From NCBI GenBank assembly GCA_963713825.1, contig CAVQNG010000003.1:1824001-1888000 (forward strand): 64,000 nt of DNA, read 5' to 3'. The position numbers were made by a program, and so were the translations under genes. The notes below the pieces were generated by a model that was not told where the DNA came from, searched no databases, and saw only the letters and a list, made by a program, of their open reading frames with translations. Below, piece after piece: positions 5,115-40,864 of this stretch. Positions within the stretch are counted from its first letter, which is position 1; each line of letters opens with the position of its first letter. Source of the DNA: an uncultured Acidobacteriota bacterium (GTDB taxonomy: Bacteria > Acidobacteriota > Thermoanaerobaculia > Multivoradales > JAHEKO01).

Positions 5115-6122
5115 TCAGGGGACCGATCCGGTCCAGGCTGCCGTGTCACCCGATTCGAAGCCGTCCTGGAAGACCATCTCTCCGAAGGCCCCGATGTGAG
5201 TGGTGCTGATGACGATGTTGTCGAACCAGATGCGGTAGGACTGACTGGCCTCGGGAAAATAGTTCCAAACGATGAAGTGATTGAGCAGGAGCTCCTCGGT
5301 GTGCCGCCAAAGCACACCGGTGTGATGTGCGACCAGCTCACCGTCGATCCACAGCGCCATCTCGCCGTCGTAGTTGCCCGCGCCCAGAAACACAGTATTG
5401 GCCCGGATCATGGTTTCCACGGAGTACCAGCGATCCTGCTCCATTGAGACGGCAGTCCCTTGGTTCAAGTTGAAGTGGTTGCCCCAGCAGCACTCGAGCC
5501 CGTTGTTGCAGGGCAGTCCTCTGTTGGCACACCCTTCGCAAATGGCATTCGCATCCGCGTAGGTATTACAGTGACTGCCGGGATCGCAGCTCATGTCGGG
5601 AAAGTAGCTGTAGAAGAAGGGTTCGCCCGGTAGCACATCCGGCACTGTTTCGCGGCTGTCCACCGTCGCACCGTTCAGGCATTTGATGCCATTGGGGCGA
5701 CAGCCGGCTGTACCGTGGCAGGACCACGGGTCGTCGTCGCGGTCACCGTGAACTGCAAAGAAGTGGTGCATCGGACGGTCCCAGGCGCTGTCCCATTTCA
5801 TGTAGAAGCGAACGTAAATACGTTCTTCGCCGAAGAAGCGGTAGCCGAAGCTGGCTCCCGTGCCGTCGGTATCCAGGACCGCTTCCACCGAGCCGCTGCC
5901 TTGAAAGGTGTGCAGGCCTGGCACACCTGCGGTGACGAGAGTGGCGTCGTCATCGTGCTCCATACCCTCCCAGGAGTGGGTCTCGAAGTCGTTGCAGTAG
6001 ACAGCCGGATTCTGCTGGCAATAGGGCTCGATGGCCGTGAGCGGGCCGGCCCCGACCAGGGCGGCAACCAGGGCCGAGAGGGTGACTCGAGACCTTCGAC
6101 GGTGACAACCGAGCTTGCTCAC
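5115..6122 (-). CDS. Secreted ConA/polysaccharide-lyase-like beta-sandwich protein with Cys-rich insert and DGFESGD tail
   Basis: Signal peptide; IYVRFYMKW, RWYSVETMIRANT, DGEMALWIDG, IWFDNIVIS; ends VFQDGFESGDTAAWTGSVP. Confidence 0.7.
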   Translation of the reverse strand: MSKLGCHRRRSRVTLSALVAALVGAGPLTAIEPYCQQNPAVYCNDFETHSWEGMEHDDDATLVTAGVPGLHTFQGSGSVEAVLDTDGTGASFGYRFFGEERIYVRFYMKWDSAWDRPMHHFFAVHGDRDDDPWSCHGTAGCRPNGIKCLNGATVDSRETVPDVLPGEPFFYSYFPDMSCDPGSHCNTYADANAICEGCANRGLPCNNGLECCWGNHFNLNQGTAVSMEQDRWYSVETMIRANTVFLGAGNYDGEMALWIDGELVAHHTGVLWRHTEELLLNHFIVWNYFPEASQSYRIWFDNIVISTTHIGAFGEMVFQDGFESGDTAAWTGSVP

Positions 6123-6262
6123 GCTTGGATCGAGGGTACCAAGACAGTGTCGGCAGTTCAGTGGAGGTTCAACACTGTCTCGTGGGAGGTGCGGCCCAGT
6201 GTAGAATCCCAGTAAATAGGCAGGTCAAGATCGTCCAGCAGGAGCCGCGAGGAAGGGGCTCG

Positions 6263-8875
6263 ATGATCGACGATTCCATAGCGCACTACCAAATCCTCCG
6301 CAAGCTCGGTAAGGGCGGCATGGGGGAGGTGTTTCTCGCGCGAGACGAGAAGCTGGGGCGCAAAGTGGCCCTCAAAGTCCTGCCACCGGAGGCGGCGGGG
6401 AATCAAGAGAGACTCGAGCGTTTCCGGCGCGAGGCCAAGGCCGTCGCGGCGTTGAACCACCCCAACATCGTCACGATCTATTCGGTCGAGGAGGTCGACG
6501 GCCTGCACTTCCTGACGATGGAGTACGTGGAAGGCAAGACGCTGTCGGAGGTGGTTCCGAAGAGCGGTCTCAGCCTGGAGCGCTTCTTCGAGATCGCCGG
6601 TTCCCTAGCGGATGCCCTGAGCAAGGCTCACGAAAAGGGGATCATCCATCGCGACCTGAAGCCCCGCAACGTGATGGTGGATCGAGATGGGCGGATTCGA
6701 GTCCTCGATTTCGGTCTGGCCAAGCTGCTTCCGACCCAGCGCAGGGAGGATGTGGATCTCGACTCGACACAGCCGACCGAGGTGCTGACGGGCGAGGGGA
6801 AGGTAGTCGGAACGACGCCCTTCATGTCACCGGAGCAACTCCGGGGTCGTCCGCTGGACGCGCGATCCGACATCTTCTCCCTGGGCATTCTGCTGTATTG
6901 GATGTCGACGGGCCGCCATCCTTTCAGTCGTGACAGCTCGGCCGATGTCATCTCCGCGATCCTCACCTCCAACCCGCCTCCGGTGACTGAAATCAAGGAG
7001 GACATGCCACGCCATCTCGGGCGTGTCATCCGGCACTGTCTAGAGAAGGACCCTTCGCAGCGGTTCCAGACAGCCCTCGATGTGCGCAACGAGCTCGAGG
7101 CGCTGCGAGAGGAAGTGTCGAGTGGTACAGCAACTGTCAGCTCGGAGTCCCTGTTCCCAGCCGAGCCCGAGAAGCGATCGAGGCGCTGGCGTGGCCTGGC
7201 CCTGGCGGCTGTATCCGTGGTCGCAATCCTGGTGGGGCTTCTGGTTGTGCGCAGCTGTGCGAGCCCGCCCCAGGATCTCAGGACTCTGGCAGTGCTGCCG
7301 TTCGCCAACCTGACAGGCGATCCCGAGAACGACCACCTGGGAGAGGTCTTCAGCAGCGGCCTGACGTACGAGCTCTCGGGCCGGTATGGCCTCCAGACGG
7401 TGGGTCGATCCGAAGTCGCGAGCCTTATTGGGAATGGTGTCGGAGCGTCCGAGTTTGGCAAGCGACTGGGTGTTGGCTCTGTCGTCGACGGCGAGATTCT
7501 TCGCGAAGGCGACCGGCGAAGAGTCGTGGTCAGCTTGACGGACACGGCTAACGGTTTCGTGCTGTGGTCGGAGCCCTATTCCTCCTCAGAGCCGGGCCTT
7601 GTCGCGCTGCAAGAGGAGGTGGCCAGAGATCTCGGTGCGCTGCTGTCGATTCCAATGACCCCAAGGCAGCGACGGCGACTGAGGAAGAACCCGGCTGAAC
7701 TGACCCGCGCCTACTCTCACTATGTGCGGGGCCAGAGGTTTCTCGATCAAGCGGATGATCCGAGTGGGCCGGAATCCGCCGCGGACAATTTCCGACAGGC
7801 AATCCGGTTGCACCCGGAATTCGCCATCGCTCACGCCAGCCTGAGCGAGGCCCTGTGGCAGATGTACCATCGGGACCTGGACCCGCAGCTTCTCGAGCAG
7901 GCTGAAATCGAAGCCAATCTAGCCCTCGAGCAGGCTCCGGACCTGCCCGCTGCGCGAATCGCCCTTTCCCGGGTGCTCCGGAGCACGGGTCAGGTGTCAG
8001 CCTCGATTGAAGTCCTGGAGCAGGCCATCGCCGATCATCCGAACCCGGATGAGGCCTACAGAGAGCTTGCCGCGGGCTACGAGCGAATCGGCGAGTTGGA
8101 GCCGGCGGAGAGCTATTACAGGACCGCCGCCGCGCTCAACGAGAGCGATTGGCTGAACTGGAATCGCCTCGGAGCGCTGCTCGCTGAGCTCGGGCGTTAC
8201 GATGAGGCGCGGGTTGCTTTTCAGCGTGCAGTAGACGTGGCTCCAGAACACATTTACCGTCCGCTCGAGAACCTCGGAACCCTCTACGTCTATGAAGCCG
8301 ACTACGAGACGGCGATCGAGATTTACGAGAAGATCCCAGAGCCCATACCGTACGCGCTGCTAGCCACCAATATCGCCACGGCTTACTTCTTCAAGGGTGA
8401 CATGGACCAGGCGGTCGGGAACTTCGCTCTGGCCGTGAAGCTGGATCCCAAAGATGCGGCGCTGCGGCGAAACCACGGTGACGTGCTGTTGCGCATGGGC
8501 GACCGCGAGGCGGCGGCGGCCGAGTACCGTGAGGCGGTGGCCCTGATGGACGAGGAGTTATCCGTCAATCCGGGGGACGGTGAACTTTTGCTCCACCGTG
8601 CCATGTATTCAGCCAAAGCGGGCGACTGCGAAAGCGCCGTGTCGGAGGCGACCGAGTTGAAGGCGACTCTCCCGAAGACGGCATTCGGAGCGCACGAGCT
8701 CGCCTACATATACGCCCTCTGTGGGACGCGTGAGATGGCGCTGGTGGCCGTCCGCGAGGCGATCGATCTGGGGATCAACCCCGAGCTGATGGCTCAAGAG
8801 GACGAGTTCGCCTCACTCCAAGACGATCCGGAGTTCCAGGCCTTGACCGGTGGCGGGCCAGAGAGCCCGAGCTAG
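6263..8875 (+). CDS. Ser/Thr protein kinase with TM helix, TolB-N-like domain and TPR repeats
   Basis: GKGGMGEV, VALK, HRDLKPRN, DFGLA, FMSPEQ; TM segment; LAVLPFANL; TPRs; start placed at ATG 6263. Confidence 0.93.
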   Translation: MIDDSIAHYQILRKLGKGGMGEVFLARDEKLGRKVALKVLPPEAAGNQERLERFRREAKAVAALNHPNIVTIYSVEEVDGLHFLTMEYVEGKTLSEVVPKSGLSLERFFEIAGSLADALSKAHEKGIIHRDLKPRNVMVDRDGRIRVLDFGLAKLLPTQRREDVDLDSTQPTEVLTGEGKVVGTTPFMSPEQLRGRPLDARSDIFSLGILLYWMSTGRHPFSRDSSADVISAILTSNPPPVTEIKEDMPRHLGRVIRHCLEKDPSQRFQTALDVRNELEALREEVSSGTATVSSESLFPAEPEKRSRRWRGLALAAVSVVAILVGLLVVRSCASPPQDLRTLAVLPFANLTGDPENDHLGEVFSSGLTYELSGRYGLQTVGRSEVASLIGNGVGASEFGKRLGVGSVVDGEILREGDRRRVVVSLTDTANGFVLWSEPYSSSEPGLVALQEEVARDLGALLSIPMTPRQRRRLRKNPAELTRAYSHYVRGQRFLDQADDPSGPESAADNFRQAIRLHPEFAIAHASLSEALWQMYHRDLDPQLLEQAEIEANLALEQAPDLPAARIALSRVLRSTGQVSASIEVLEQAIADHPNPDEAYRELAAGYERIGELEPAESYYRTAAALNESDWLNWNRLGALLAELGRYDEARVAFQRAVDVAPEHIYRPLENLGTLYVYEADYETAIEIYEKIPEPIPYALLATNIATAYFFKGDMDQAVGNFALAVKLDPKDAALRRNHGDVLLRMGDREAAAAEYREAVALMDEELSVNPGDGELLLHRAMYSAKAGDCESAVSEATELKATLPKTAFGAHELAYIYALCGTREMALVAVREAIDLGINPELMAQEDEFASLQDDPEFQALTGGGPESPS

Positions 8876-14903: not shown

Positions 14904-16169
14904 TCAGCGCCAGACCAGCGGTCGCTGGACCACCGACGACCAGGCTGTCGTGTCGCCCGATTCGAAGCCGTCGGAGAAGAGCGGCTCCGCCGTCTCTTCG
15001 ATGCAGTATAGGCTTGAGAAGTTGAAGTCGCAGCTGCTGGTGAAGAGCAGGGTCCAGGCACTGTCCGCCGCGTTGGCGGCGCCCGCGCGAGCTGTTTCCG
15101 TTCCGCTCGCCGAGGTCCAGTCGGAACAAGTTCCATTGTCCCGGAGTCCGTCGCTGGCGGTCGCCGTCCACACCGCAATGTATGAAGAATACCTGCCCAG
15201 CTCTGACACATTGATGGAGGCCTCGAGTGATCCGTCCAACATGTCGGCCAGCGAGTCGGCCACCTTGACGCCATCCGGGCGGACCCTGGGTCCATCGACC
15301 AGAAAGCGATCCTTGGCGTCGGTCGTCGAGTCGGAGATCCAGGCTTTGAAACTCGAAGGATTCGCGAGTGAACCTGCCGCAGCCCGGGCCTGGCAGATGG
15401 CATCGGCGGCAGCCACTCCTGTCTGGCCTCCGGCATCGGGCCAGGAGCCCAAATCTCCCGTGCCCCTCACCGAGGTCACGAAGGCGACGGCACCCGTCTC
15501 GGCGGGTGGGGTCAGCGCAGGCCCCGATCCCGGCTCGAAGCAAAAGAGGTGAGCCGCGCCGGCACACGCCGGTGATCCGGTGTTGGTCCAGCTATACGAG
15601 CCTCGAGCCGTGCTTCCCACTTGTACAGCGACCGCAGGCGTGGCGGTCCAGTCCCCGCAGGTGCTGTGATTCGTGTCCAGAGTTCCTTCTGCGTCGGTTG
15701 CCGTAAAGACCGAGCCTGGAACGGACTCGCCATCTTCGTCGGCTGCCAGGGGGTAATAGACGACGGCTTCGGGAGGAACAAGCCGGTCGATTGTTTCGCT
15801 GAACGGCAGGCCGTCGGTCCGAACCCACGGGCCAGCGGCGACGGGAAGTTGTGCCTGGCCGCAATTGGCTGACTTCTTGCCGGTGAACCCATGCAACCTG
15901 CAGTAGGCGTCATCTGTACTCGTCGAAAGCCAGGCGATGAAGGTGTCGGCGTTCTGGAGCCCCGCGTCCGTGGCGAGAGTGCGGCAGATCTCGTCGCCGG
16001 CGCTAGCCCCGACGGCACTGCCTGCTTCAGGCCAGCTGCCGAGATCGGCCGTGCCAGTCACCGAGGTGACAAAGGCGACTTTCGGCTGCTGCGCCTCGAG
16101 CGCCGACACGAAGGCGCAAGAAAAGAGAAGAATTGTCCAGAGCCGAATCCGGCTGGTCGTCGGTTGCAT
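14904..16169 (-). CDS. Secreted protein with two endostatin-like/DUF1554-type domains and DGFESGD tail (paralog B)
   Basis: GGAGG RBS, ATG 16169, signal peptide; two copies of FVTS..G..DLGSW..AG...G..A(G/A)D.IC...A....L.N...F.AW(L/I)S; ends LFSDGFESGDTTAWSSVVQRPLVWR. Confidence 0.8.
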   Translation of the reverse strand: MQPTTSRIRLWTILLFSCAFVSALEAQQPKVAFVTSVTGTADLGSWPEAGSAVGASAGDEICRTLATDAGLQNADTFIAWLSTSTDDAYCRLHGFTGKKSANCGQAQLPVAAGPWVRTDGLPFSETIDRLVPPEAVVYYPLAADEDGESVPGSVFTATDAEGTLDTNHSTCGDWTATPAVAVQVGSTARGSYSWTNTGSPACAGAAHLFCFEPGSGPALTPPAETGAVAFVTSVRGTGDLGSWPDAGGQTGVAAADAICQARAAAGSLANPSSFKAWISDSTTDAKDRFLVDGPRVRPDGVKVADSLADMLDGSLEASINVSELGRYSSYIAVWTATASDGLRDNGTCSDWTSASGTETARAGAANAADSAWTLLFTSSCDFNFSSLYCIEETAEPLFSDGFESGDTTAWSSVVQRPLVWR

Positions 16170-16279: not shown

Positions 16280-17542
16280 TCAGCGAAAAATCAGCGGCCG
16301 CTGGACCACCGACGACCAGGCTGTCGTGTCCCCCGACTCGAAGCCGTCGGAGAAGATCGGCTCGGGTGGATCCTCGATGCAATAGAGACGCGAGTTGGCG
16401 AAGCTGCAGCTCGGGCTGTAGTACACGGTCCACGTGCTGTCCGCCCCAAAGGTGGTGCCCGCGCGAGCGGTATCTCCTCCGCTGGCCGAGGTCCAGTCTG
16501 AGCAAGTTCCGTCGAGGAGCCATCCTTCCGAGTTGGTCGCCGTCCAGGCCGCGTCGTTCGTGAGATAGGTCCCGAGCTCGGTTACGTTGATAGACGCATT
16601 GAGGGAGCCGTCCAGTAGGTCGGCGAACGAGTCCGCCACCTTGACTCCGTCTGGCCGCACTCTCGGTCCATCCGTGAGGAGGCGGTCCCTGGCATGGGTT
16701 GCCGAGTCGGACAGCCAGGCTCTGAATCTCGAGGGATTGGGCAGCGACGCCACCGCGGCCCGTACCTGACAGATGGCATCCGCCGCAGCCAATCCGGTCT
16801 GGCTTCCGGCGTCGGTCCAGGAGCCCAGGTCAGCTGATCCCGATACCGACGTCGCGAATGCAAGAGCACCAGTCTCCGCTGGTGGCGTGAGAGCGGGTCC
16901 CGCTCCAGGTTCGAGGCAAATCAGATGATTCGCCACATCGCATCGGTTGCTACCCATATTGGTCCAGCCCGCGGAACCGCGCGCCGTTCCGCCAAGGACC
17001 ACGCCATCCGGAATAGTCGAGGTCCAATCTGTGCAGGTGACGGGGTTCGGTGACACAGTGCCATTGGACATGGTTGCCGTCATCATGTATCCCTCGACGG
17101 GGTTTCCATCTTCATCGGCTGCCAGAGGGTAGTAGACGACTGATTCAGGGAGCAGTAGCCGGTCGATACTCTCCCCGAACGGCAAGCCGTCGGTCCGAAC
17201 CCACGGGCCAGCATCGACGGGCAGCTCGGCCTGACCACAGTTTGCGGACTTCTTGCCGCTGAATCCATGCAGCCTGCAGTAGGCATCATCGGTGCTCGTC
17301 GAGAGCCATGCGATGAAGGTGCCCGCATTGGCGAGTCCAGCGTCGGTGGCGAGAGTCCGGCAGATCGCGTCGCCGGCGGCCGCTCCGACGGCACTCCCTG
17401 CCTCTGGCCAGCTGCCCAGGTCGGCAGTGCCGTTCACCGAGGTCACAAAGGCGACTTTCTGTTGGGCTTCGAGCGCAGGGGAAGACAGCCCGACGAGAAC
17501 GAAGATCATCCACGCCAGGTAGCGGTAGCTGGTAGGTCCCAT
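16280..17542 (-). CDS. Secreted protein with two endostatin-like/DUF1554-type domains and DGFESGD tail (paralog A)
   Basis: GAGGT RBS, ATG 17542; collinear with the 14904..16169 product; ends IFSDGFESGDTTAWSSVVQRPLIFR. Confidence 0.8.
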   Translation of the reverse strand: MGPTSYRYLAWMIFVLVGLSSPALEAQQKVAFVTSVNGTADLGSWPEAGSAVGAAAGDAICRTLATDAGLANAGTFIAWLSTSTDDAYCRLHGFSGKKSANCGQAELPVDAGPWVRTDGLPFGESIDRLLLPESVVYYPLAADEDGNPVEGYMMTATMSNGTVSPNPVTCTDWTSTIPDGVVLGGTARGSAGWTNMGSNRCDVANHLICLEPGAGPALTPPAETGALAFATSVSGSADLGSWTDAGSQTGLAAADAICQVRAAVASLPNPSRFRAWLSDSATHARDRLLTDGPRVRPDGVKVADSFADLLDGSLNASINVTELGTYLTNDAAWTATNSEGWLLDGTCSDWTSASGGDTARAGTTFGADSTWTVYYSPSCSFANSRLYCIEDPPEPIFSDGFESGDTTAWSSVVQRPLIFR

Positions 17543-17700: not shown

Positions 17701-18822
17701 ATGAAGAGACGTGTCATCTCGAGCCTTCTACTTGTGAGCTTTCTGGCGGTGCCGATGTTCGGTTCGCGGAGCACCTACGACGGGCCGACGTTGCGAGACA
17801 ACTACGACGGCCCCATCCTTGTCGACAACTCCCAGCTGCGCTACCGCGGTGCCGACATGCTGAGCTTCGACACGGCCGTGTACCTGGAGCACGAGGCTCC
17901 CAACTTGATGCCGCTCCGCCCGGCGATCGACACCTGGGCTGCCATGCACGCCATTCATCCACGGGTGCTGATTCAGGTGCTGCGTGCGTACTGGCCGGTG
18001 GCGCCGACCTCGGGGAACATGGTCGAGAAGCAGACTGTCCACCAGATCGCCACCGGAATCGCTATGGTCTACCTGCGGCATCCTGAGGACCCCCTGGCAG
18101 CCTCGAAAGCGGTGATGGCCATCGCGGATGCCTACCATCTGAGGGTCGACCTGCCCGCCGAGCTGGCCAGGGGCCGGCACCTTCCGACACCCACGGCGCC
18201 ACTGGTCTTCGGTTGGTTCCAGCCGCCTTGGACGATTGGCGACACCTGGGCCGGAGGCGGTGCTCACGGTGACACTGGCAGCGGGGTCCGCAACGCGCTC
18301 GACTACTGGGGACAATGGCGCGATTGGGGTGCGGACTTGAGCCAATGGTGGGTGGCGGCGACCCAGGCCGGTACCGCACGAGTATGGTCCGAGTGCAGCG
18401 TATCGGTGTATCACGCCGATGACTGGGTGTCGACTTACTACCACCTGGAGAATATTCAGATTGCGGACCGCCAAGTCGTGGAACGAAACACGGTGATCTC
18501 GAACTACGCCAACGACAAGCCGACGGCACTTTGCCAGGGGGGCTCGTCCACGGGACCGCATCTCCACTCGGCTCTCTACCACAATGGCAACCGCGTCGAG
18601 ATCGATGAGGCCAACGTGGACTTCACCGCCTTCTCGCATCACGCTGGCGAGGGCCAGTACGACTTCAACTGTGCCACCTCCTGGTACACCCACGACACCA
18701 ACGGCAAGGTCTGCCCCTCGGCGGACCAACTCTGGAACAATGCTCCGCCCCCGAGCCCCATGCCCTTCATCGACGGCTTCGAGTCCGGCGACACCGCGGC
18801 CTGGACGAGCACTACCCAGTAG
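17701..18822 (+). CDS. LasA/beta-lytic-like M23A metalloendopeptidase with propeptide and DGFESGD tail
   Basis: Signal peptide; GGAHGDTG..ALD, STYYHLENI, ALCQGGSSTGPHLH; ends PFIDGFESGDTAAWTSTTQ. Confidence 0.85.
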   Translation: MKRRVISSLLLVSFLAVPMFGSRSTYDGPTLRDNYDGPILVDNSQLRYRGADMLSFDTAVYLEHEAPNLMPLRPAIDTWAAMHAIHPRVLIQVLRAYWPVAPTSGNMVEKQTVHQIATGIAMVYLRHPEDPLAASKAVMAIADAYHLRVDLPAELARGRHLPTPTAPLVFGWFQPPWTIGDTWAGGGAHGDTGSGVRNALDYWGQWRDWGADLSQWWVAATQAGTARVWSECSVSVYHADDWVSTYYHLENIQIADRQVVERNTVISNYANDKPTALCQGGSSTGPHLHSALYHNGNRVEIDEANVDFTAFSHHAGEGQYDFNCATSWYTHDTNGKVCPSADQLWNNAPPPSPMPFIDGFESGDTAAWTSTTQ

Positions 18823-19477: not shown

Positions 19478-19480
19478 CGC

Positions 19481-23935: not shown

Positions 23936-25114
23936 TCACTGCACCACGGTAGGCCAGGCCGACAGGTCACCCGACTCGAAATCGTCCTTGAAGATCGCGG
24001 TGTCGAGGTGCCCCAGCGCGACAGCCCTGCTGTTGTCAGTGTCTGCACTGACGTCGCCGCAGGTGAAGCCTCCGTTGCCATCGCCAAGGCAGACACGATC
24101 CTCTTCACTCACATTGGAGAAGACGGCATCGAGATGCGAGTCGTCGTCGATCAGGCCCAGCGCAACGTCAACCGAAGTGTAGCTGACGGCCTCGACGTTG
24201 CTGCAGGAGAAGCCGCCTGTGCCGTCGCCCAGGCAGACGCGATTCGGGTCACCAGCGTTCGCGAAAACAACATCGACGTTGTCGTCGCCGTCAATCAATC
24301 CTGACGCCACACTGGTGGTAGTACCACGTTCGCTCAGATAGCTGCAGGTGAGGCCGCCCAGCCCGTCACCCACACAGAGCTGATTCGATCCGTTCGAGTT
24401 GCTGACAACGGCGTCCAAATGCCGGTCGGAATCGATCCGATCGAGCACGATGTCCGAAGAAAGGGAGCCAACGTCGAGCTCGCTGCAGGAGAAGCCGCCG
24501 GCACCATCGCCAAGGCAGATTTGAGCGTCGGACCCGCTGAAGACCGCGTCGAGGTGGTTGTCGGCGTCCAGCCAGTCCAGCGCGACCGCGGACGTAGTAG
24601 TGGGATCGCCCGCGAAGTCACTACAGGAAAAGCCACCGCTTCCGTCTCCCAAACAGACCCGATCCCACCAGCCGGACGTGGCGAGCACCACATCGAGGTT
24701 CAGGTCACCGTCGACGAATCCGAGGGCCACTCCGAACGTGTTGATGCTGGACTGGCTGAGGTCGCCACAGGTGAAGTCTCCGAAGCCATCGCCGAGGCAG
24801 AGCCGGTTGCCCTTGTAGGCGTTGGTGGCAAAGATCGCATCGAGATGAACGTCGCCGTCGACCAGTCCGAGTGCTACGTTTTGGGTGATCCTGATGTCGG
24901 TCTCGAGGTCGCTGCAGCTGAATCCACCTGTGCCGTCGCCGAGACAGACCTGGCTTTCGGCGTCGTAGACGGCAAACACGGCATCGAGATTCCCGGCGCC
25001 TTTGGCCGGTATCGTCAGTGAGCCGGAAGCTCCCAGCAACACGAGAATGAAGGCGAGTGGAAGCGAGTTGTGCTTCAGCTGTTCAGGGCTTGGATGTTCC
25101 TTGGGTCTCTTCAT
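23936..25114 (-). CDS. Secreted FG-GAP/VCBS-repeat beta-propeller with DDFESGD tail
   Basis: About seven repeats of C(L/V)GDG.G.F(S/T)C......VALG..D.D..LDAVF; signal-like N-terminus; ends IFKDDFESGDLSAWPTVVQ. Confidence 0.85.
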   Translation of the reverse strand: MKRPKEHPSPEQLKHNSLPLAFILVLLGASGSLTIPAKGAGNLDAVFAVYDAESQVCLGDGTGGFSCSDLETDIRITQNVALGLVDGDVHLDAIFATNAYKGNRLCLGDGFGDFTCGDLSQSSINTFGVALGFVDGDLNLDVVLATSGWWDRVCLGDGSGGFSCSDFAGDPTTTSAVALDWLDADNHLDAVFSGSDAQICLGDGAGGFSCSELDVGSLSSDIVLDRIDSDRHLDAVVSNSNGSNQLCVGDGLGGLTCSYLSERGTTTSVASGLIDGDDNVDVVFANAGDPNRVCLGDGTGGFSCSNVEAVSYTSVDVALGLIDDDSHLDAVFSNVSEEDRVCLGDGNGGFTCGDVSADTDNSRAVALGHLDTAIFKDDFESGDLSAWPTVVQ

Positions 25115-25143
25115 TTTGGTCCCCTCCCGCATGCAGGTAGCTG

Positions 25144-33963: not shown

Positions 33964-34935
33964 CTACTGCACCGTGGATGTCCACCCGGACATGTCACCG
34001 CTCTCGAAGCCGTCTGCAAACAGGGCCTTGGAGCTGGTCATCGACAGGCTCCAGTAGAGGCCGCCCGAGAGCGCTTCGTAGTCGTCGCCCGGCGGTGGTG
34101 CTGCTTGCCCCCAGTGGGGATGGCCGGATGCGTCCGTGCCCGCGCCCCATCCTACGACCGTGCCGTTGGATTTCCGGGCGAGGCCGTGAATGTAGCCGGC
34201 CGAGATCTCCACGAAGTCGTTACCGGCAGGTACCACGTCCAGATCGTGGTCCCAGGGGTCGTCGCCCCAGTGGACGATCGAGCCGTCGCTGGCCAGCGCC
34301 AGACAGTAGTCATGACCGGCAGAGACTTGGGTATAGGTGCCGGAGGCGGGCTGTCCCGAGGTACCTCCCACGTAGCCCCAGCTGACCACAGTGAGGTTCG
34401 AGCGCAGGGCCACCGCATGCCTGTCTCCGGCGGCGACCTGAATGAAGTCGGTACCTGCCGGAACGTTGGTGACCTGACCGTAGTTGTCGTTGCCCCAAGC
34501 GACGATCGAACCGTTGGTGGCCAACGCCACGGCGTAGAACTCTCCGCCATCGACTGCCGTGTAGGTCCCCGCAGGAACAAGATCGACTCCATCCGGGTCA
34601 TCACCCCAGTGGACGATCGTGCCATCGTCCTGGATGGCCAGGCTGAAATCACCGCCCGCGCCGATCGCCTTGCACGTTCCGAGAGTCGCCGGGGGGACGT
34701 TCTGGCCATCGTGATCCTGGCCCCATGCCACAACGGTGCCATCGGCCTTGAGGGCCACGCCGTGCTCGTCGCCTGCCGCGATGGCGATGAAGTCACTGCC
34801 GGCCGGCGTGTCGGTGACCTGATTGACGTAGTCCCCACCCCAGGCCCTGAGCTCGTAGCCCAGCGCGAATTGACTCGAGAAACCCAGCAATAGCAAGGAA
34901 ACCAGAACTGCGAGCTGCTCTCTCGACACTCTCAT
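33964..34935 (-). CDS. Secreted RCC1/BLIP-II-like repeat beta-propeller with DGFESGD tail
   Basis: Signal peptide; repeats AIAAG.EH.VALK.DGTVVAWG; ends LFADGFESGDMSGWTSTVQ. Confidence 0.85.
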   Translation of the reverse strand: MRVSREQLAVLVSLLLLGFSSQFALGYELRAWGGDYVNQVTDTPAGSDFIAIAAGDEHGVALKADGTVVAWGQDHDGQNVPPATLGTCKAIGAGGDFSLAIQDDGTIVHWGDDPDGVDLVPAGTYTAVDGGEFYAVALATNGSIVAWGNDNYGQVTNVPAGTDFIQVAAGDRHAVALRSNLTVVSWGYVGGTSGQPASGTYTQVSAGHDYCLALASDGSIVHWGDDPWDHDLDVVPAGNDFVEISAGYIHGLARKSNGTVVGWGAGTDASGHPHWGQAAPPPGDDYEALSGGLYWSLSMTSSKALFADGFESGDMSGWTSTVQ

Positions 34936-37074: not shown

Positions 37075-37083
37075 GAGAGCGGG

Positions 37084-38277
37084 TCAGATTCTAACCGTCA
37101 TTCCGAGGTGTCCTGAATAGGTGGAGATCGCAGATCGCACCGCGTGCTGGGTTGCGGTGGAGGGATCTCTGCTTTCGAAGACGAGGGATAGAACATCCAG
37201 GCACTTGCGTTGGCGGTCGGCTTTCAGATCGACCCGGGCCACGAGCTCGTCGCCGACAAGCACCGGCAGACAGTAGTACCCGTACTGACGACTCGCCGCC
37301 GGCTTGAAGATCTCGAGCACTTGATGGAAATCGAAGAGTCGTTGGGTGCGAGCCCGATCCCAAAGGACGGGATCGAACGGTGAGAGGAGAACGCCCTTGC
37401 TCCGACGAACGCGCAAGCGAGAAAGGTCGTGCGCCAGCTCCAGATCCTCGGTCCGGATCCATCCCGAGAGCCGGCCACCGTTCTTGTCAACGAGGCTGCA
37501 GGCGACAATCGCCTCCATCTCGACCAGCTCGCGCAGCGCCAGTGCGAGCTCCTTCTTCCTGTTTCTGAGTCGCCAGGTCGCAGTCAGGGTCCCCGTCTGC
37601 GCCCAGCCATGACCGGCCAGCGCTCGAAGCAGAAGAGTCCGAAGAGAGGAGGGTAGATCGCGTGGTTGCTTTCTGAGCTCCGCTGGGATCACCCGCTCAG
37701 CGAGATCGAAGACGCGTTGAAAGCTGCGTCGTTCACGAATGGCCAGATCACCCCTCGACCACAAGGCGGACGCCACCTTCTTGGTGAGCTTCACGTCCCA
37801 GCCCGAGCCCGACTGGCCTTCGAGATCGAGGGACCGCAGCGGCCCTTCGTTCCGAATCCGATCCAAAAGACGCTGGGTGGCCTTTGGGTTCTCGCCGAGA
37901 ACATCCCCCCACCACGGGTGGTGGCGATACTCCTGCCGCCGAAACTCGAAGTAGGGGTAGAGCTCCATCGGCAGCCAACTGGCTTCGTGTCCCCAGTATT
38001 CGAACAGCGGCTCACCAGGGCTGAGGAGGGACTCGCAAACGGCGGGATCGATCCCCTCGAGTCGGGACATCAGCACCAGGGCGTGGCTGCGAGCTCCGGC
38101 GACGGCGACCGTATCCAACTGCAGGTAGCCGAATCGCCGAACCACCGCGAGGCAAGCCCGGCGGGCGGCCTTCTCCCGCAGGGGACCCCTGCTCGGCAGG
38201 CCCGTCAAGGCTGGTCGAAGCAGGCCCGCTCTCACGAGGGCCAGGCGTCTGGCTTGGCGGATGTCGATGCTTTCCAT
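37084..38277 (-). CDS. ycaQ: YcaQ/AlkZ-family (HTH_42) interstrand-crosslink DNA glycosylase
   Basis: LQLDTV (QxD), FEYWGHEAS, LLSPFDPVLWDR, RQYGYYCLPVL, RVDLKADR. Confidence 0.85.
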   Translation of the reverse strand: MESIDIRQARRLALVRAGLLRPALTGLPSRGPLREKAARRACLAVVRRFGYLQLDTVAVAGARSHALVLMSRLEGIDPAVCESLLSPGEPLFEYWGHEASWLPMELYPYFEFRRQEYRHHPWWGDVLGENPKATQRLLDRIRNEGPLRSLDLEGQSGSGWDVKLTKKVASALWSRGDLAIRERRSFQRVFDLAERVIPAELRKQPRDLPSSLRTLLLRALAGHGWAQTGTLTATWRLRNRKKELALALRELVEMEAIVACSLVDKNGGRLSGWIRTEDLELAHDLSRLRVRRSKGVLLSPFDPVLWDRARTQRLFDFHQVLEIFKPAASRQYGYYCLPVLVGDELVARVDLKADRQRKCLDVLSLVFESRDPSTATQHAVRSAISTYSGHLGMTVRI

Positions 38278-38335
38278 GATGGCGACCAGCAAGGGTATCC
38301 CAGAAGGGGGACCACGCTGGGTTCGCACTTTCTTG

Positions 38336-38388
38336 ATACCTAGTGAAACAAAGTATATGGTGTGACCGTATACATAGTTGAACGAAAG
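38336..38388. promoter_or_regulatory. Putative tandem PadR operators
   Basis: AT-rich atacctagtgaaacaaagtat (imperfect palindrome, 38336-38356) and atacatagttgaacgaaag (38370-38388) directly upstream of padR. Confidence 0.55.
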
Positions 38389-38396
38389 GAAAGACC

Positions 38397-38750
38397 ATGG
38401 AATCCCTGGAAAGAGAGCTCAGACGCGGCACTCTGGAGCTGCTCTTGCTCCGCATCCTGGCTGACGAGCCGACGTATGGCTACGAGCTCCTCAGCCGGTT
38501 GGGCAAACGCAGCAGTGGGCGGTTCAAGATCAAGGAAGGAACGCTTTATCCGGTGCTCTATCGGCTCGAGGATGCAGACCTGGTGGAGCCGGAGTGGGAG
38601 CAACGGGCCCGCGGCGCGGCGCGAAAGATCTATCGATTGACCACAGCGGGGCAGCAGCGGCTTGTCGAACTGACGACGGAATGGCAGGGCTTCGCTGCTG
38701 GCATCGAGAGCATTCTCTCTGGGCATACGCCCGAGAAGGAGGAAACATGA
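38397..38750 (+). CDS. PadR-family transcriptional regulator
   Basis: LRRGTLELLLL, YGYEL, EGTLYPVLYRLE, RKIYRLT..G. Confidence 0.93.
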   Translation: MESLERELRRGTLELLLLRILADEPTYGYELLSRLGKRSSGRFKIKEGTLYPVLYRLEDADLVEPEWEQRARGAARKIYRLTTAGQQRLVELTTEWQGFAAGIESILSGHTPEKEET

Positions 38751-39466
38751 AACCAGCTGAACGCTATATCGACGACGTCCTGAGCCACGTTTTTGCTGTC
38801 CCGGAGGATCGGCAGCGGCTGGAAGCCGACTTGCGCTCACACTTCACCGAAGGGGAGGCCGAGGGCAGGACTCCACGCCAGGTAATCGAGGGGCTGGGGA
38901 CGCCCGAAGAGGTCGCGGCGGCCTTCAATGCCGAGCGCGAGTTCCGGTACGCGAGCTTCTGGCAGCGCCTTGTCGCCTTTTTCGGCGATGCAGGTCTCCT
39001 CATGTGTCTCGTGGTTCCGGTTCTCACCCTGGGTCTCATGGCGGGCGTGGTAGGAGAGGAGCCTGGAGACATTGCGGTCGTCTGGCTCATTCCCTTTGGG
39101 TTGCTGTTCCTGGCCATCCTCGGTCTCGGCATCTTCTACTTCCCATTGCTCGAGGCGCACTATGGCAAGACGCTCGGCAAGCACCTGATGCGACTTCGAG
39201 TGGTGCGGGAGAACGGTTCGCCCATTGGCCTCGGTCAGGCCTTCGTGCGGCGGCTTTCGTTCTACTTCGACATGCTCTGGGTCGACGCGCTCTTCGTCTT
39301 CTTCACCGACAAGAACCAGCGCGCCCTCGACATCGTCGCCAAGACCGTGGTGGCTCAGGAGCCAGGCGAGCGCACTCCGGGGTGGGCCTGGGTGGTGTGC
39401 CTGCTCCTCCCGGCCGTAGCGATGTGCTGCCTGCTGTTGCTGGTGGCCCTCTGCGGACCGGCCTGA
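38747..39466 (+). CDS. HAAS-like N-terminal domain plus RDD-family membrane protein
   Basis: ATGA overlap with padR; DLRSHF.E...LGTPEEVA; ASFWQRLVAF, GKTLGK, NQRALDIVAKTVV. Confidence 0.85.
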   Translation: MKPAERYIDDVLSHVFAVPEDRQRLEADLRSHFTEGEAEGRTPRQVIEGLGTPEEVAAAFNAEREFRYASFWQRLVAFFGDAGLLMCLVVPVLTLGLMAGVVGEEPGDIAVVWLIPFGLLFLAILGLGIFYFPLLEAHYGKTLGKHLMRLRVVRENGSPIGLGQAFVRRLSFYFDMLWVDALFVFFTDKNQRALDIVAKTVVAQEPGERTPGWAWVVCLLLPAVAMCCLLLLVALCGPA

Positions 39467-39484
39467 CCATCTACCTGTGTTCGA

Positions 39485-39539
39485 GTAGGGGAGGGGGCTT
39501 GCCCCCTCCCGCGGGCGGCCGCAAGGGGCCGCCCCTACA
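39485..39539. repeat. GTAG-type REP inverted pair
   Basis: gtaggggagggggcttgccccctccc-gcgggcggccgcaaggggccgcccctac. Confidence 0.78.
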
Positions 39540-39565
39540 TTTGTAGGGACAGATCAGAGTTCTTG

Positions 39566-40864
39566 CTACTGGGTAGTGCCAGACCAGCTAGTGGTGTCAC
39601 CCGCTTCGAAGCCGTCGGCGAACACCGTCGACACATCGAAGCGGCCGAACCACATGTCGAGGCCTCGGGTTGGGTGGCTGACGAGGGCCGACACGTAGAG
39701 ATCGTTGTTCCTGCCAGCCGCCACCCCGATACCGGTGTCGTAGCCACTGTCCGGCCCATCGAGCGTGACCCAGGCCTCCAGGTTCAACGCGGGGTCGAAA
39801 CGCGCCAGCCAGATGTTCGTGCCGCCGACAGTCTCGGTGAAGGTGCCGGTGTGGTAGAGGCGGCCAGCGCTGCCCATGGTCATGAGGTAGGCAACGTCTT
39901 CGCCGTCGACGGGGCCGTTGATCGTCAGCGCGTCGATTGGGTTCAGGTCGGTGTCGTACTTCGCCATCCAGATGTTGTAGCTCTCGTTCGTCTCGATCAT
40001 GGTGCCAGTAACGAAGATCGTGTCGTCCCCGTCGAAGGTGATGCCGTAACCCTTGTCTTCATCGGGCGTCGGTCCGTCGACCGTAATGTCATCGACGAAC
40101 GTCAGGTCGTCCTTGAACTTGCCGATCCAGATGGCGTAGTCCCGGCTCAGGTCGTCGGTCATCGAGCCGCTCACGAACAGGTGCCGTGTGTCATCGAAGG
40201 CCATGAACCGCGCCTTGTCGGTGTCGTGGGCGGGACCATCCATCGTGATGTCGTCCACCAGGTCGAGGTCGGTGCCGTAGATGGCGAGCCAGATGTTCGC
40301 GTCCTGGCCGGTTTCCCGCAGCGTTCCAGCCAGGTAGAGGTTGCCGCTAACGCTGTCGAAGAGGATGCCGTAGCCGTCGTCTTCGCCGTTGTCCGTGCCG
40401 TTGACGGTGATCGAGTCGAGCAGCGTCAGGTCGGAGTCGAACTTGCCGAGCCAGATGTTGTGGCGCTCGCCTGCTTCGGTCATGTATCCCACCAGGTAGA
40501 CGTTACCGCTCCCATCGAAGGCCATCGTGTAGCCTTCGTCGTCCCCGTTCGCCACGCCGTTGACCGTGACGCTGTCCTGGTAGACGAGCTCCTCGCTGTA
40601 CTTGCCCAGCCAGATGTTTCGACCCTGGCCCGCGACGGTAACGTAGCCTGTGGCGTACACAGTGCCGTCGGAAGCCACCGATATGCCGCGCGCTTCGTCG
40701 TTGCCGTCCTCCCCGCCATCGACCGTCACGGATTGCAGGAGATGGAAGACATCCCCTTCCTCGGAAACTGGAACGACGTCAGGTGGAGCGGAATCGACTG
40801 CTGCCGGGTGAACCACCAGCACTAGGACGGCGACGACCGATACGACCAAGGCTCTCGGGCACAT
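39566..40864 (-). CDS. Secreted SBBP-type beta-propeller with DGFEAGD tail
   Basis: Signal peptide; seven repeats T(V/I)(D/N)G....D.......D......Y..G.......NIWL.K(Y/F)D.DL; ends VFADGFEAGDTTSWSGTTQ. Confidence 0.85.
   Translation of the reverse strand: MCPRALVVSVVAVLVLVVHPAAVDSAPPDVVPVSEEGDVFHLLQSVTVDGGEDGNDEARGISVASDGTVYATGYVTVAGQGRNIWLGKYSEELVYQDSVTVNGVANGDDEGYTMAFDGSGNVYLVGYMTEAGERHNIWLGKFDSDLTLLDSITVNGTDNGEDDGYGILFDSVSGNLYLAGTLRETGQDANIWLAIYGTDLDLVDDITMDGPAHDTDKARFMAFDDTRHLFVSGSMTDDLSRDYAIWIGKFKDDLTFVDDITVDGPTPDEDKGYGITFDGDDTIFVTGTMIETNESYNIWMAKYDTDLNPIDALTINGPVDGEDVAYLMTMGSAGRLYHTGTFTETVGGTNIWLARFDPALNLEAWVTLDGPDSGYDTGIGVAAGRNNDLYVSALVSHPTRGLDMWFGRFDVSTVFADGFEAGDTTSWSGTTQ

Follow-up and report, generated by a model that had tools for sequence, protein, structure and literature searches.

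A short C-terminal tail on unrelated exported proteins of an uncultured Acidobacteriota bacterium and its candidate jelly-roll acceptor

Analysis of a 64,000-nucleotide stretch of DNA (the window) from an uncultured Acidobacteriota bacterium, together with the genome to which it belongs (G000; 5.42 Mb, 4,662 called genes), revealed a short C-terminal tail on unrelated exported proteins and a small secreted jelly-roll protein that lacks the hairpin to which the tail corresponds. Our best reading, held with about even confidence, is a non-covalent tag-and-acceptor docking system, in which the tail probably serves to attach a variety of proteins to a common receptor bound to the envelope. Thermoanaerobaculia and related bacteria, abundant in sediment and soil and almost uncultured, have large exoproteomes, and we know of no account of how they keep their enzymes near the cell.

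Seven exported proteins of the window end in a common tail

A six-frame scan of the window with the pattern [DE][DGN]FE[SAGT]G[DNE] returned exactly seven matches, all at the ends of the seven open reading frames that a first-pass annotation had singled out (Table 1), and the motif was absent from every other frame. The distance from the D of DGFESGD to the stop is 16 codons in five of the seven tails and 22 codons in the two DUF1554 paralogues (cargo B and C), which carry the additional residues RPL[VI][WF]R. The start of cargo B was set at the signal-peptide-like MQPTTSRIRLW; a longer open reading frame, to 16523, overlaps gene C. Read by eye, all seven proteins have basic residues at the N-terminus and then a hydrophobic stretch, which bears out the signal-peptide-like N-termini proposed for them.

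The bodies of these proteins were compared with the Pfam and NCBIfam models. The M23 peptidase of cargo D (31.8 bits, cut-off 28.7), FG-GAP_3 of cargo E (35.7 bits, cut-off 26.9) and RCC1_2 of cargo F (123.9 bits, cut-off 22) scored above their cut-offs, whereas the PL14/Polysacc_lyase-like label of cargo A (E 3.9e-4), the DUF1554 labels of cargo B and C (E 4e-4 and 9e-4) and the SBBP/delta-60 repeat label of cargo G fell below theirs and are weak. The 42 other proteins of the window were assigned by Pfam to Mla transport, kinases and housekeeping functions, with no secretion or sorting gene among them, in agreement with the earlier remark that no cognate machinery is encoded there.

Table 1. 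Positions of the tailed proteins, their tails and the candidate acceptor gene (window numbering except for the acceptor)
Feature	Position	Strand	Description
Cargo A	5115..6122	-	Exported PL14/Polysacc_lyase-like protein, weak match
Tail of cargo A	5115-5174	-	VFQDGFESGDTAAWTGSVP + stop
Cargo B	14904..16169	-	Exported DUF1554-like protein, weak match
Tail of cargo B	14904-14981	-	LFSDGFESGDTTAWSSVVQ + extra RPLVWR + stop
Cargo C	16280..17542	-	Exported paralogue of B, DUF1554-like, weak match
Tail of cargo C	16280-16357	-	IFSDGFESGDTTAWSSVVQ + RPLIFR + stop
Cargo D	17701..18822	+	Exported M23 peptidase
Tail of cargo D	18763-18822	+	PFIDGFESGDTAAWTSTTQ + stop; partner chain in the complex model
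Cargo E	23936..25132	-	Exported FG-GAP repeat protein
Tail of cargo E	23936-23995	-	IFKDDFESGDLSAWPTVVQ + stop
Cargo F	33964..34929	-	Exported RCC1-repeat propeller
Tail of cargo F	33964-34023	-	LFADGFESGDMSGWTSTVQ + stop
Cargo G	39566..40864	-	Exported SBBP/delta-60-repeat propeller, weak match
Tail of cargo G	39566-39625	-	VFADGFEAGDTTSWSGTTQ + stop
Candidate acceptor	contig C25:782692-783348		218 aa; only profile match in G000, outside the window

The tail is a portable C-terminal module

Across the genome, the pattern matched 64 times; the stop follows at a distance of exactly 16 residues in 52 of these matches and of at most 28 in 61. A profile built from 52 tails, for a search of the kind that the first-pass annotation had recommended, retrieved 75 stop-to-stop frames, in 70 of which the motif lies no more than 6 residues from the stop; the other five carry it at an internal or N-terminal position, and copies directly following a signal peptide exist. 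The reversed DNA pattern, used as a control, gave no matches in 401 genomes and in 201 genomes, and the frequency of the tail is far beyond chance. The tail comprises about 20 residues (19-25) with the consensus phi-F-x-D-G-F-E-S-G-D-x-S-x-W-S-x-x-V-[PQE]; it is acidic, ends in V-[PQE] and contains no hydrophobic stretch. Third codon positions in the tails are variable and the DNA 3' of the stop is unconserved, so that selection acts on the peptide and not on a DNA repeat, and a DNA-repeat origin of the tails was thereby ruled out.

In public data, 8,660 cluster representatives carry the tag, none of them annotated for it, and single-copy tags lie at the very C-terminus in 67 of 71 cases among the matches listed. 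Many motif proteins outside the genome under study are multi-copy, some with two tails in tandem, an arrangement that would resemble the habit of binding modules and that we counted, by analogy, for docking. Within a sample of 201 genomes of the class, strict-pattern copies number 45-83 per genome in many genomes, and the counts are bimodal, either zero or tens. The cargo is rich in peptidases and beta-helix proteins, and it includes a lipase and an MtrC/MtrF-like cytochrome whose family is annotated as outer-membrane cytochromes. These observations support the description given from the window, of a C-terminal module that is portable among unrelated exported proteins and has neither a transmembrane helix nor a basic end. 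No curated Pfam or NCBIfam model matched the tail, and Pfam found no families in the motif proteins of other Acidobacteriota classes (L132-L141). Our literature searches returned no description of the tail or its system, with GFESGD occurring in unrelated contexts only, and nothing on C-terminal sorting signals of Thermoanaerobaculia or Acidobacteriota.

The tail compared with sorting signals

The tail shares with the PEP-CTERM/exosortase, LPXTG/sortase and GlyGly-CTERM/rhombosortase systems its small size, its place at the very end of unrelated Sec-exported proteins, its tens of copies per genome and its patchy distribution among lineages. The tail differs from these tripartite signals in lacking the signature motif, transmembrane helix and basic cluster: no PF07589/TIGR02595 match was found on the seven proteins, no LPXTG-like motif, transmembrane helix or positive end in the seven tail sequences, and PEP-CTERM-like ends in the genome number at most one. 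The C-terminal domain of T9SS cargo (PF18962/TIGR04183) is likewise a beta-structured element on diverse secreted proteins; it is, however, a complete beta-sandwich of 70-100 residues, far longer than the tail, and its models had no match at E<=1 on the seven proteins.

The first-pass annotation had left the choice between an export signal and a docking peptide. We consider it unlikely, though deserving of weight, that the tail is a genuine signal for sorting or export, read by an outer-membrane translocon or processing enzyme that would carry the cargo through the outer membrane or onto it, with the jelly-roll protein described below serving as a periplasmic receptor or chaperone or being a bystander. 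The strict C-terminal position of the tail would suit such a role, as would the bimodal counts, which are like those of dedicated sorting systems, the cytochrome among the cargo, and cargo F, homologues of which have PEP-CTERM at the end where it has the tail. The missing transmembrane helix argues the other way, and tandem tails and N-terminal copies behind a signal peptide would be unusual where a free C-terminus is needed. Furthermore, no candidate machinery emerged from kinases, neighbourhoods or exosortase. Ser/Thr kinase-TPR proteins were rejected as partners: they make up 17 of 386 neighbours, yet kinases number 85 in the genome as a whole and a permutation test showed no enrichment near tail genes (3/67 against a random mean of 3.0). 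Machinery beside the cargo of low-count genomes was rejected as well, since 17 neighbourhoods of 20 kb share only abundant families (sulfatase-TPR, kinase, ABC ATPase). Exosortase (PF09721), which served as a comparison family and was considered as tag reader or as the system replaced, does not co-vary with the tails: it occurs in 20 of the 22 tail-rich genomes and in 19 of the 25 without tails. It was not found in the genome under study.

Relation of the tail to a ConA-like jelly-roll domain

Sequence comparison identifies the tail as the first beta-hairpin of a ConA-like jelly-roll domain with weak similarity to PF14099. In G474 and G131, two genomes of the same family, cargo ends in a complete jelly-roll of ~185 aa that starts with the motif. 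Tandem jelly-rolls that likewise start with it, and that match PF14099 weakly, are found in Chloroflexota- and Actinomycetota-like proteins. On the intact relatives P0001 and P0003, PF14099 scored 24.4 and 23.6 bits, below the gathering score of 29.9, and in P0003 the match, covering profile positions 1-181, begins at the motif. In P0017, positions 4-22 of NTTRR-F1 (NF033675) align on a tail, below the curated cut-off. A sequence search of the PDB with P0006 gave xylanase matches only, at chance level. The tail thus aligns with the N-terminal start of these domains, and the acceptor model described below has their fold; the tail alone, however, is no domain, the acceptor is without the opening hairpin, and the matches stay below curated cut-offs.

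Internal copies of the motif and a match to a characterised domain had both been named beforehand as evidence that would speak against the tail as a C-terminal signal. Each was found in part, the former in the five internal or N-terminal frames and in the many multi-copy proteins elsewhere, the latter as the correspondence to the first hairpin of a PF14099-like fold; they explain the origin of the tag and do not refute it. The homology to the first hairpin of a domain that is whole in relatives might also mean that the tails are functionless remnants of decayed C-terminal jelly-rolls. We find this barely credible given the 45-83 copies in many genomes, the recurrence of the same end point in 52 of 64 matches, conservation at the level of the peptide with free third codon positions, and the existence of tandem duplications. 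In addition, the tail is retained in the nine closest homologues of cargo F, at 58-80% identity.

A hairpin-less secreted protein is the candidate acceptor

The candidate acceptor consists of a signal peptide followed directly by LDVNANAALTGS..., without the hairpin, and its mature form has 193 residues. Equivalent hairpin-less open reading frames of 203-248 aa are present in 16 other genomes that were fetched. The tails end 5 residues past the W, at column 6 of the alignment of the family (A2), and the mature acceptors start at columns 5-7; the end of the tail therefore tiles with the N-terminus of the acceptor, which accounts for the fixed distance of 16 residues to the stop.

The acceptors had no Pfam match, and their profile had no match at E<=1 among PDB chains. 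The fold of the acceptor model is nearest to the PL18 structure 1j1t (E 9e-7), PL7, ulvan lyase and GH16, with TM values of 0.45-0.58. The model would thus place the acceptor among ConA-like lectin-glucanase jelly-rolls by fold-level similarity only, and the fold matches are generic. Of 21 loci of the core (the hairpin-less domain), 14 have sulfatase-family genes and 10 have glycosyltransferases no more than 8 kb away; only 4.3% of the genes of the genome under study have a sulfatase gene within three genes.

Predicted complex of tail and acceptor

Modelling of the cargo D tail with the acceptor gave an ipSAE of 0.66 (0.61, 0.66 and 0.66 in the individual runs), the best of three controls reaching 0.01. 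Among solved complexes, 116 of 157 attain this mark, and among mismatched pairs 2 of 215, figures that apply only approximately here, since our own alignments were used. The runs agree on at least 91% of contacts, with a partner pLDDT of at least 67. In the model, tail residues 15-18 pair with core residues 187-191 and tail residues 27-31 with core residues 35-40, these core segments being the best conserved blocks of the acceptor family. The tail is thus predicted to bind the acceptor by filling its hairpin gap. Such a result would be expected for two halves of one domain family, and it suggests that the pieces fit without implying that they meet in the cell. In the AlphaFold2 model of cargo F, the propeller has a pLDDT above 90 and the tail one of 33-49, so that the tail appears free or disordered, which we counted for docking. 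Also counted for docking was the equivalence of position in cargo F, whose distant homologues bear PEP-CTERM or dockerin where it has the tail, and whose nine closest homologues keep the tail.

Co-occurrence of tail and acceptor

In the class sample of 201 genomes, 29 have both tail and core, 4 the tail only, 5 the core only and 163 neither, or 19, 1, 4 and 57 when counted by genus; an unpublished genome, G024, is included in the counts for zero tails and zero cores. Fisher p-values overstate this association, since related genomes are not independent. By profile search, three of the five core-only genomes have tails, and no tails were found in five core-negative genomes. The core was found in 20 of the 22 genomes with at least eight tails. 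Two tail-rich genomes, G523 (43 pattern matches) and G551 (25), gave no core match even at E<=1; they are 91% and 94% complete, in 440-490 contigs. Eight genomes outside the class, from a sample of the phylum, have 1-5 motif matches each without the core, and some of these motifs are true C-terminal tails. Tail and core both track larger genomes, and their co-occurrence is trivial in low-count genomes where the motif belongs to an intact domain.

The co-occurrence result depends on the sensitivity of the profile. A single-sequence search had placed the acceptor in 10 of 51 genomes, and the lack of co-occurrence that this suggested was shown by the profile search to be a failure of sensitivity. 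With a candidate partner elsewhere in the genome, its co-occurrence with the tail and the predicted acceptance of the tail, the docking half of the original proposal has gained support.

Anchoring of the acceptor

In three genomes (G276, G502 and G487), the hairpin-less core is fused to SLH (PF00395; 45-46 bits, cut-off 20.8), and SLH is present on 9 of 11 longer database homologues of the acceptor. The gene adjoining the acceptor-SLH gene of G276 encodes a PF04230 pyruvyl transferase (95.5 bits, cut-off 25.3) with additional GT domains. The two features by which SLH anchoring to the wall is recognised, namely SLH domains and a CsaB-type pyruvyl transferase, are thus found in relatives, the transferase in G276. 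SLH anchoring was ruled out for the genome under study, which encodes no SLH domain, and its acceptor therefore has no demonstrated anchor. SLH domains in diderm bacteria mostly function in the periplasm, and display at the surface is accordingly no more than a possibility.

The same findings bear on the possibility that tail and acceptor rebuild a working lectin or CBM, shared and detachable, that targets enzymes to a polysaccharide substrate or a community matrix instead of the envelope of the producer. The likeness of the acceptor fold to polysaccharide lyases and lectin-like jelly-rolls, the CBM-like presence of the whole domain at the C-terminus of cargo in relatives, the peptidases, beta-helix proteins and lipase among the cargo and the sulfatase-family and glycosyltransferase genes around the acceptor gene all lend themselves to this explanation. 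We nevertheless judge it rather improbable, as the matches to known folds are of a generic kind, none of the residues could be identified as sugar-binding, and the SLH fusions beside a pyruvyl transferase point to a wall polymer of the producer itself.

In two distant genomes, S8 peptidase genes adjoin the acceptor-SLH genes, the peptidases being 55% identical over 445 residues. Taken with the many peptidases among the cargoes and the disorder of the tail in the cargo model, this synteny could indicate a C-terminal pro-peptide or a protease recognition tag for maturation, quality control or turnover, with an incidental link to the jelly-roll. No protease family was shown to co-vary with the tails, and the exact tiling with the acceptor N-terminus and the complex model would be left unexplained, which makes this explanation highly improbable in our view.

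Docking model and comparison with known systems

For the docking system, we infer its cellular location, its anchoring in the genome under study and its purpose as follows. A hairpin would have been cut from a jelly-roll domain and attached to the C-termini of ~70 unrelated Sec-exported proteins, and the remainder of the domain would be a small secreted protein of ~215 residues with a single gene per genome. In this protein the signal peptide leads directly into the strand that comes after the hairpin in intact domains. Once a cargo has been exported, its disordered tail would insert between the C-terminal strand and the 'AYVxSD' strand of the acceptor, completing the sandwich and docking the cargo non-covalently. 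The acceptor itself would be held in the envelope, in some lineages by fused SLH domains binding pyruvylated wall polysaccharide and in the genome under study presumably by lectin-like binding to a polysaccharide made by the acceptor-gene locus. A single monovalent acceptor gene for ~70 cargo genes was counted against docking.

The dockerin-cohesin modules of clostridial cellulosomes, displayed by SLH-anchored scaffoldins, offer a parallel. Both systems place a short terminal tag on many unrelated exoproteins, with a dedicated non-covalent receptor (here predicted) that can be tied to the wall by SLH, as in the acceptor-SLH fusions. A dockerin, however, has ~65 residues against ~20 here and joins a cohesin as one folded module to another, whereas the tail is predicted to complete a split fold; moreover, the acceptor is monovalent and single-copy, in a lineage of diderm Acidobacteriota. 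The dockerin model PF00404 had no match on the seven proteins, and the resemblance is functional only.

In donor-strand complementation, as in chaperone-usher pili, bundling pili/TasA and AbpX, a beta-sandwich that lacks a strand receives it from another chain, as predicted here, the donor segment being disordered until docked. AbpX is reported to be a Ca-dependent jelly-roll completed by a donor with conserved aromatic and acidic residues (bioRxiv 10.64898/2026.01.04.697558). In these systems a single N-terminal strand links like subunits into a polymer, unlike the two-strand hairpin on ~70 heterologous cargoes with one separate acceptor, an architecture that would imply no polymer and may rather be a case of a split domain. 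By analogy, the logic of the system would be that of dockerin-cohesin-SLH display and its mechanism that of donor-strand complementation. None of the literature found on strand complementation with S-layer homology anchoring concerns the tail or its acceptor.

More tentatively, and with less than even confidence, we propose a natural 'tag-and-catcher', in which an Acidobacteriota lineage split a lectin-like domain into a hairpin tag of 20 residues, now found on dozens of exoproteins, and one acceptor, either secreted or anchored by SLH, and in which fold complementation, possibly calcium-dependent, assembles the whole exoproteome on the polysaccharide layer of the cell itself. If true, this would be a protein-display principle that has been described in no organism, and biotechnology would gain a non-covalent peptide tag ready for use. 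A short encoded peptide completing a small stable domain could also serve for affinity or immobilisation. Docking of the tail would place ~1.5% of the genes of the genome (roughly 70/4,662) in one display system and carry donor-strand complementation beyond the assembly of pili, to the docking of proteins in general. The mature acceptor and a 20-residue peptide form a testable pair, and models of tag and acceptor, both lacking so far, become available to annotators.

Short contigs with at least 99% identity to parts of the acceptor gene were present in the RNA libraries X12, X16 and X17. They are at most a hint of expression, since transcription cannot be shown by contigs and the libraries may contain carried-over DNA. 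Run X18 contained only a relative, at 90-95% identity.

A shared C-terminal peptide on unrelated exported proteins

The first-pass annotation had described seven secreted proteins of the window, with unrelated bodies and a common C-terminal tail, as a candidate sorting or anchoring system. Here, a six-frame scan for [DE][DGN]FE[SAGT]G[DNE] recovered seven matches in the window, one closing each of the named ORFs, and the N-termini of all seven proteins, inspected by eye, display a basic and then a hydrophobic segment, in line with the signal-peptide-like character ascribed to them. The bodies are indeed unrelated, with M23, FG-GAP, and RCC1 scoring over the Pfam cut-offs and PL14/Polysacc_lyase-like, DUF1554 (twice), and SBBP/delta-60 under them, while no Pfam-A or NCBIfam model covers the tail, whether whole proteins (E ≤ 1) or tails alone (E ≤ 10) are searched. 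The stop lies 16 codons from the D of DGFESGD in five ORFs and 22 codons in both DUF1554-like paralogues, in which six extra residues, RPL[VI][WF]R, follow the tail.

Across the genome harboring the window (G000; 5.42 Mb, 38 contigs), the same search yielded 64 motifs, of which 52 were located exactly 16 residues and 61 within 28 residues from the stop, and three deep inside long frames. The genome-wide count proposed with the annotation, run with a profile from 52 tails (E < 1e-3, domain score > 15 bits), returned 75 stop-to-stop frames. A C-terminal position held for the 70 frames with the motif at most six residues from the stop and failed for five, namely three proteins in which it directly follows the signal peptide, an RHS-repeat protein in which it precedes the C-terminal part, and a short frame. 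Judged by a crude rule based on hydrophobicity, the products of 41 of 60 tailed genes (≥150 aa) were export-like versus those of 1130 of 3660 other genes (48/60 versus 1461/3667 with alternative starts allowed). Tail 5-mers are the commonest C-terminal words in the G000 proteome, from which PEP-CTERM-like ends are essentially absent. A DNA-repeat origin was ruled out, since the third codon positions of the tails vary and nothing is conserved 3′ of the stop, so selection acts on the peptide; that the tails are functionless remnants is extremely unlikely.

Of 75 tail stop codons in G000, 45 are TAG, 26 TGA, and 4 TAA, and TAG closes 37% (1089) of 2,922 long ORFs; the enrichment is partly inflated by paralogues. 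Several frames of 46–72 codons end in good tails, lack a plausible start or signal peptide, and probably reflect assembly errors or cargo genes that are broken or frameshifted. Another C-terminal word that recurs in G000, L[RE]ALGY[LI], closes 17–18 proteins and may belong to a sulfatase-TPR family. Ser/Thr kinase genes with TPR or PD40 repeats number four in the window and 85 in the genome, and show no enrichment beside tail genes.

Coordinates of features in the window (positions only) and in G000 (contig and positions) or fetched loci
Feature	Location	Remark
Window tails in the stop-codon tally	5115, 14904, 16280, 18820, 23936, 33964, 39566	
Tail of DUF1554-like tandem paralogue	14904-14981	RPLVWR
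Tail of DUF1554-like tandem paralogue	16280-16357	RPLIFR
Ser/Thr kinase gene	6161-8875	
Ser/Thr kinase gene	46355-49060	
Ser/Thr kinase gene	55529-58195	
Ser/Thr kinase gene	59039-62104	
Hairpin directly behind signal peptide	C25:331864-333120	
Hairpin directly behind signal peptide	C3:1671359-1672048	
Hairpin directly behind signal peptide	C3:1180186-1182801	
Short tailed frame	C34:112171-112338	
Short tailed frame	C13:9849-10028	
Short tailed frame	C15:1347-1523	
Short tailed frame	C12:4631-4771	
Short tailed frame	C34:18052-18270	
Short tailed frame	C11:37639-37830	
Multihaem cytochrome	C3:904611-907028	MtrC/MtrF-like, tailed
RHS-repeat protein	C35:14180-18982	internal motif
Acceptor gene	C25:782692-783348	218 aa
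Three upstream paralogues	C25:776862-782431	512-577 aa
S8 peptidase gene	L182:4668-7826	genome G276
S8 peptidase gene	L198:4906-7362	genome G487

Cargo variety and taxonomic distribution

Among 56 further tailed proteins, Pfam identified peptidases (M43, M36, M12B, and trypsin-like), a GDSL lipase, an MtrC/MtrF-like multihaem cytochrome, beta-helix proteins, FG-GAP propellers, Laminin_G_3, CarboxypepD_reg arrays, Calx-beta/BACON, and a C-type lectin, and 24 had no family at E ≤ 1e-5. The cytochrome also carries Ig-like domains; if such cargo were docked outside the cell, the tag would be tied to extracellular electron transfer. The bodies following the N-terminal hairpin in three G000 proteins are unrelated and match no Pfam family, and the tag seems usable at either protein end. 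In the RHS-repeat protein, the motif sits just ahead of the C-terminal RHS core and variable end, a junction also present at loci L030 and L069 of two other genomes, as if a tailed protein had gained a downstream cassette. Among 120 listed homologues of the window's RCC1-repeat propeller, the nine closest (58–80% identity) retain the tail or a variant, and more remote ones terminate in PEP-CTERM (P0181, PF07589; P0191, by eye), dockerin (P0218 and P0248, PF00404), or other C-terminal domains.

When one genome per species was scanned with a degenerate DNA pattern encoding DGFESGD-x3-W, at least 131 loci matched, and the 80 listed belong mostly to Thermoanaerobaculia, Holophagae, and unclassified Acidobacteriota MAGs. 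In the 131 loci examined, the stop lies at exactly 16 codons in 65 and at 11–19 codons in 100, while in 23 the frame continues past the fetched flank; among the matches listed, such run-on loci include ones from Chloroflexota, Actinomycetota, Armatimonadota, Bathyarchaeia, and Vicinamibacteria, where the motif opens a longer domain. The pattern occurs in 17 of 401 genomes of the phylum and in 33 of 201 genomes of the class that are ≥90% complete, these counts being lower bounds since the strict pattern catches 45 of ~75 G000 tails. Counts are bimodal, with zero in whole families (48, 27, 20, and 19 genomes) versus 8–83 in 22 genomes of two clades; contrasts also occur within families, and a reversed-pattern control gave zero everywhere. 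A profile of 69 tails, searched against 1.84 billion cluster representatives, matched 8,660 proteins at E ≤ 1e-3; among the 150 matches listed, 67 of 71 single-copy ones (counted from the table) end at the last residue.

The tail as the first hairpin of a jelly-roll domain

The best-scoring representatives are multi-copy. In P0001 and P0003 every copy opens a ~200-residue jelly-roll, P0006 follows the order cargo, motif, jelly-roll, motif, end, and P0015, P0017, P0018, and P0021 end in two tandem tails. The jelly-roll gives weak PF14099 (Polysacc_lyase) matches with the profile start at the motif, and in the same-family genomes G474 and G131 cargo (e.g. a GSDH propeller) ends in a whole ~185-aa domain including the motif. 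Since the whole domain starts with the motif in these relatives, the tail is, judging by sequence, the first beta-hairpin of a ConA-like domain, split from the remainder. Residues 102–120 of P0017, within a tail, weakly match positions 4–22 of NF033675 'NTTRR-F1 domain' (E 0.015, 15.4 bits, cut-off 70), which probably opens with the same hairpin.

When the whole G474 domain was searched against the G000 proteome, a single protein matched, aligned only from residue 48 on, past the hairpin. This putative acceptor, also the sole profile match in G000, has a type-I-like signal peptide followed directly by 'LDVNANAALTGS...', the strand next after the hairpin in intact domains. In the acceptor alignment (A2), tails would stop at column 6, five residues past the W, and mature acceptors start at columns 5–7; together, tag and acceptor tile the intact domain, which accounts for the fixed motif-to-stop distance. 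The extension of the DUF1554-like paralogues would overlap in position with the first strand of the acceptor.

Modeled by itself in AlphaFold2, the acceptor forms a beta-sandwich (pLDDT 81, pTM 0.81), least confident at both ends. Its Foldseek neighbors are generic ConA-like jelly-rolls (PL18, PL7, ulvan lyase, and GH16; TM 0.45–0.58), and sequence searches matched it to nothing in the PDB, Pfam, or NCBIfam. With polysaccharide-active enzymes among these neighbors, tail and acceptor might instead form a carbohydrate-binding module that is shared, detachable, and directed to substrate, a reading that we regard as distinctly unlikely. In fetched loci of 16 further genomes, the acceptor is a single ORF of 203–248 aa with a signal peptide and without the hairpin. 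The acceptor gene of G000 resembles most others in being surrounded by Sulfatase-family genes (14 of 21 loci, against a background of only 4.3% of G000 genes with one within three genes) and glycosyltransferases (10 of 21); an ABC ATPase, methyltransferase, or sulfotransferase also lies close by. Directly upstream of the latter are three paralogous secreted proteins, two of which (557 and 577 aa) were scanned and carry a C-terminal Peptidase_S74 'chaperone of endosialidase', as in trimeric fibre/tailspike proteins; the sister genome G119 has the acceptor locus without them.

Co-occurrence of tail and acceptor

With a single sequence as query, the acceptor was detected in only 10 of 51 genomes, which argued against it as a partner. 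A profile of 13 cores reversed this result, matching 20 of 22 genomes with at least eight pattern tails, all 5 low-count genomes, and 3 of 25 pattern-free genomes. By comparison, the exosortase family occurs in 20 of 22 tail-rich versus 19 of 25 tail-free genomes. In the 201-genome class sample, 29 genomes have both, 4 tails only, 5 core only, and 163 neither, the negatives including the unpublished genome G024; by genus, the counts are 19, 1, 4, and 57. The Fisher p-values (1e-25 by genome, 1e-13 by genus) overstate the association, as related genomes are not independent. The tail profile recovered tails in three of the five core-only genomes (7, 2, and 1) and none in five core-negative genomes searched. 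Two tail-rich genomes, G523 (43 tails, 91% complete) and G551 (25 tails, 94%), have no core even at E ≤ 1, and outside the class the core is absent from eight genomes with 1–5 motifs and present without the pattern in three. Where the motif belongs to an intact domain, co-occurrence is trivial. The tail could also be a sorting signal read by a further machine, for which the acceptor would be a receptor or a mere bystander; we consider this unlikely. Tests for the defining features of PEP-CTERM, LPXTG, T9SS CTD, and dockerin were all negative.

Predicted binding and a candidate docking system

The complex was modeled from A2 and the tail alignment (A1), whose first row is the tail of the window's M23 peptidase. 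It scored 0.66 (runs 0.61, 0.66, and 0.66) versus 0.01 for the best of three controls. Of 157 solved complexes, 116 attain that mark, as do 2 of 215 mismatched pairs, counts that are a rough guide here as our own alignments were used. At least 91% of contacts agree between runs, with partner pLDDT of at least 67. Tail residues 15–18 (F-x-D-G) are placed against acceptor residues 187–191 in the C-terminal strand and 27–31 (W-S-x-x-V) against 35–40 (AYVAST); within the acceptor family, no other blocks are as well conserved as these two. The model supports, rather than shows, tail-acceptor binding as a split-domain pair: since such pairs tend to pass by likeness, it indicates a fit between the pieces, not an encounter between them in the cell. 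The model of the RCC1-repeat protein leaves the tail (pLDDT 33–49, versus >90 for the propeller) unpacked on its own protein. Such a loose end might also be a protease tag or pro-peptide, which we judge very unlikely.

We give about an even chance to a tag-and-acceptor docking system, in which exported cargo would insert its tail hairpin into an acceptor kept in the envelope or matrix. Functionally, such a system would resemble dockerin-cohesin-SLH display, and its mode of binding would resemble donor-strand complementation, without its being a member of either family. A recent example of donor-strand complementation is the Ca-dependent jelly-roll protein AbpX (bioRxiv 10.64898/2026.01.04.697558). 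A literature search covering main texts outside subscription journals found no description of the tail system; the present analysis adds a co-occurrence table over 201 genomes, a complex model with controls, the tiling argument, a link to SLH and pyruvyl transferase, and the conserved locus.

Clues to anchoring

In G276, G502, and G487, the hairpin-less core runs on into SLH domains (PF00395, 45–46 bits, cut-off 20.8; about three repeats by eye), and 9 of 11 longer database homologues share this core-SLH architecture, also without the hairpin. The G276 gene adjoining acceptor-SLH encodes polysaccharide pyruvyl transferase (PF04230) and glycosyltransferase domains; the SLH-domain ligand is reportedly a pyruvylated wall polysaccharide, and in diderms SLH domains are usually periplasmic. 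G000 contains no SLH domain, and SLH-less acceptors presumably bind a polysaccharide made by the acceptor locus. Points against docking are that one acceptor gene would have to serve ~70 clients, that the G000 acceptor lacks an SLH anchor, and that the tail-rich G523 and G551 show no acceptor. In G276 and G487, which belong to different orders, S8 peptidase genes adjoin the acceptor-SLH gene; their products share 55% identity over 445 residues, the G487 copy also has SLH, and the pair may constitute a mobile or functionally linked cassette.
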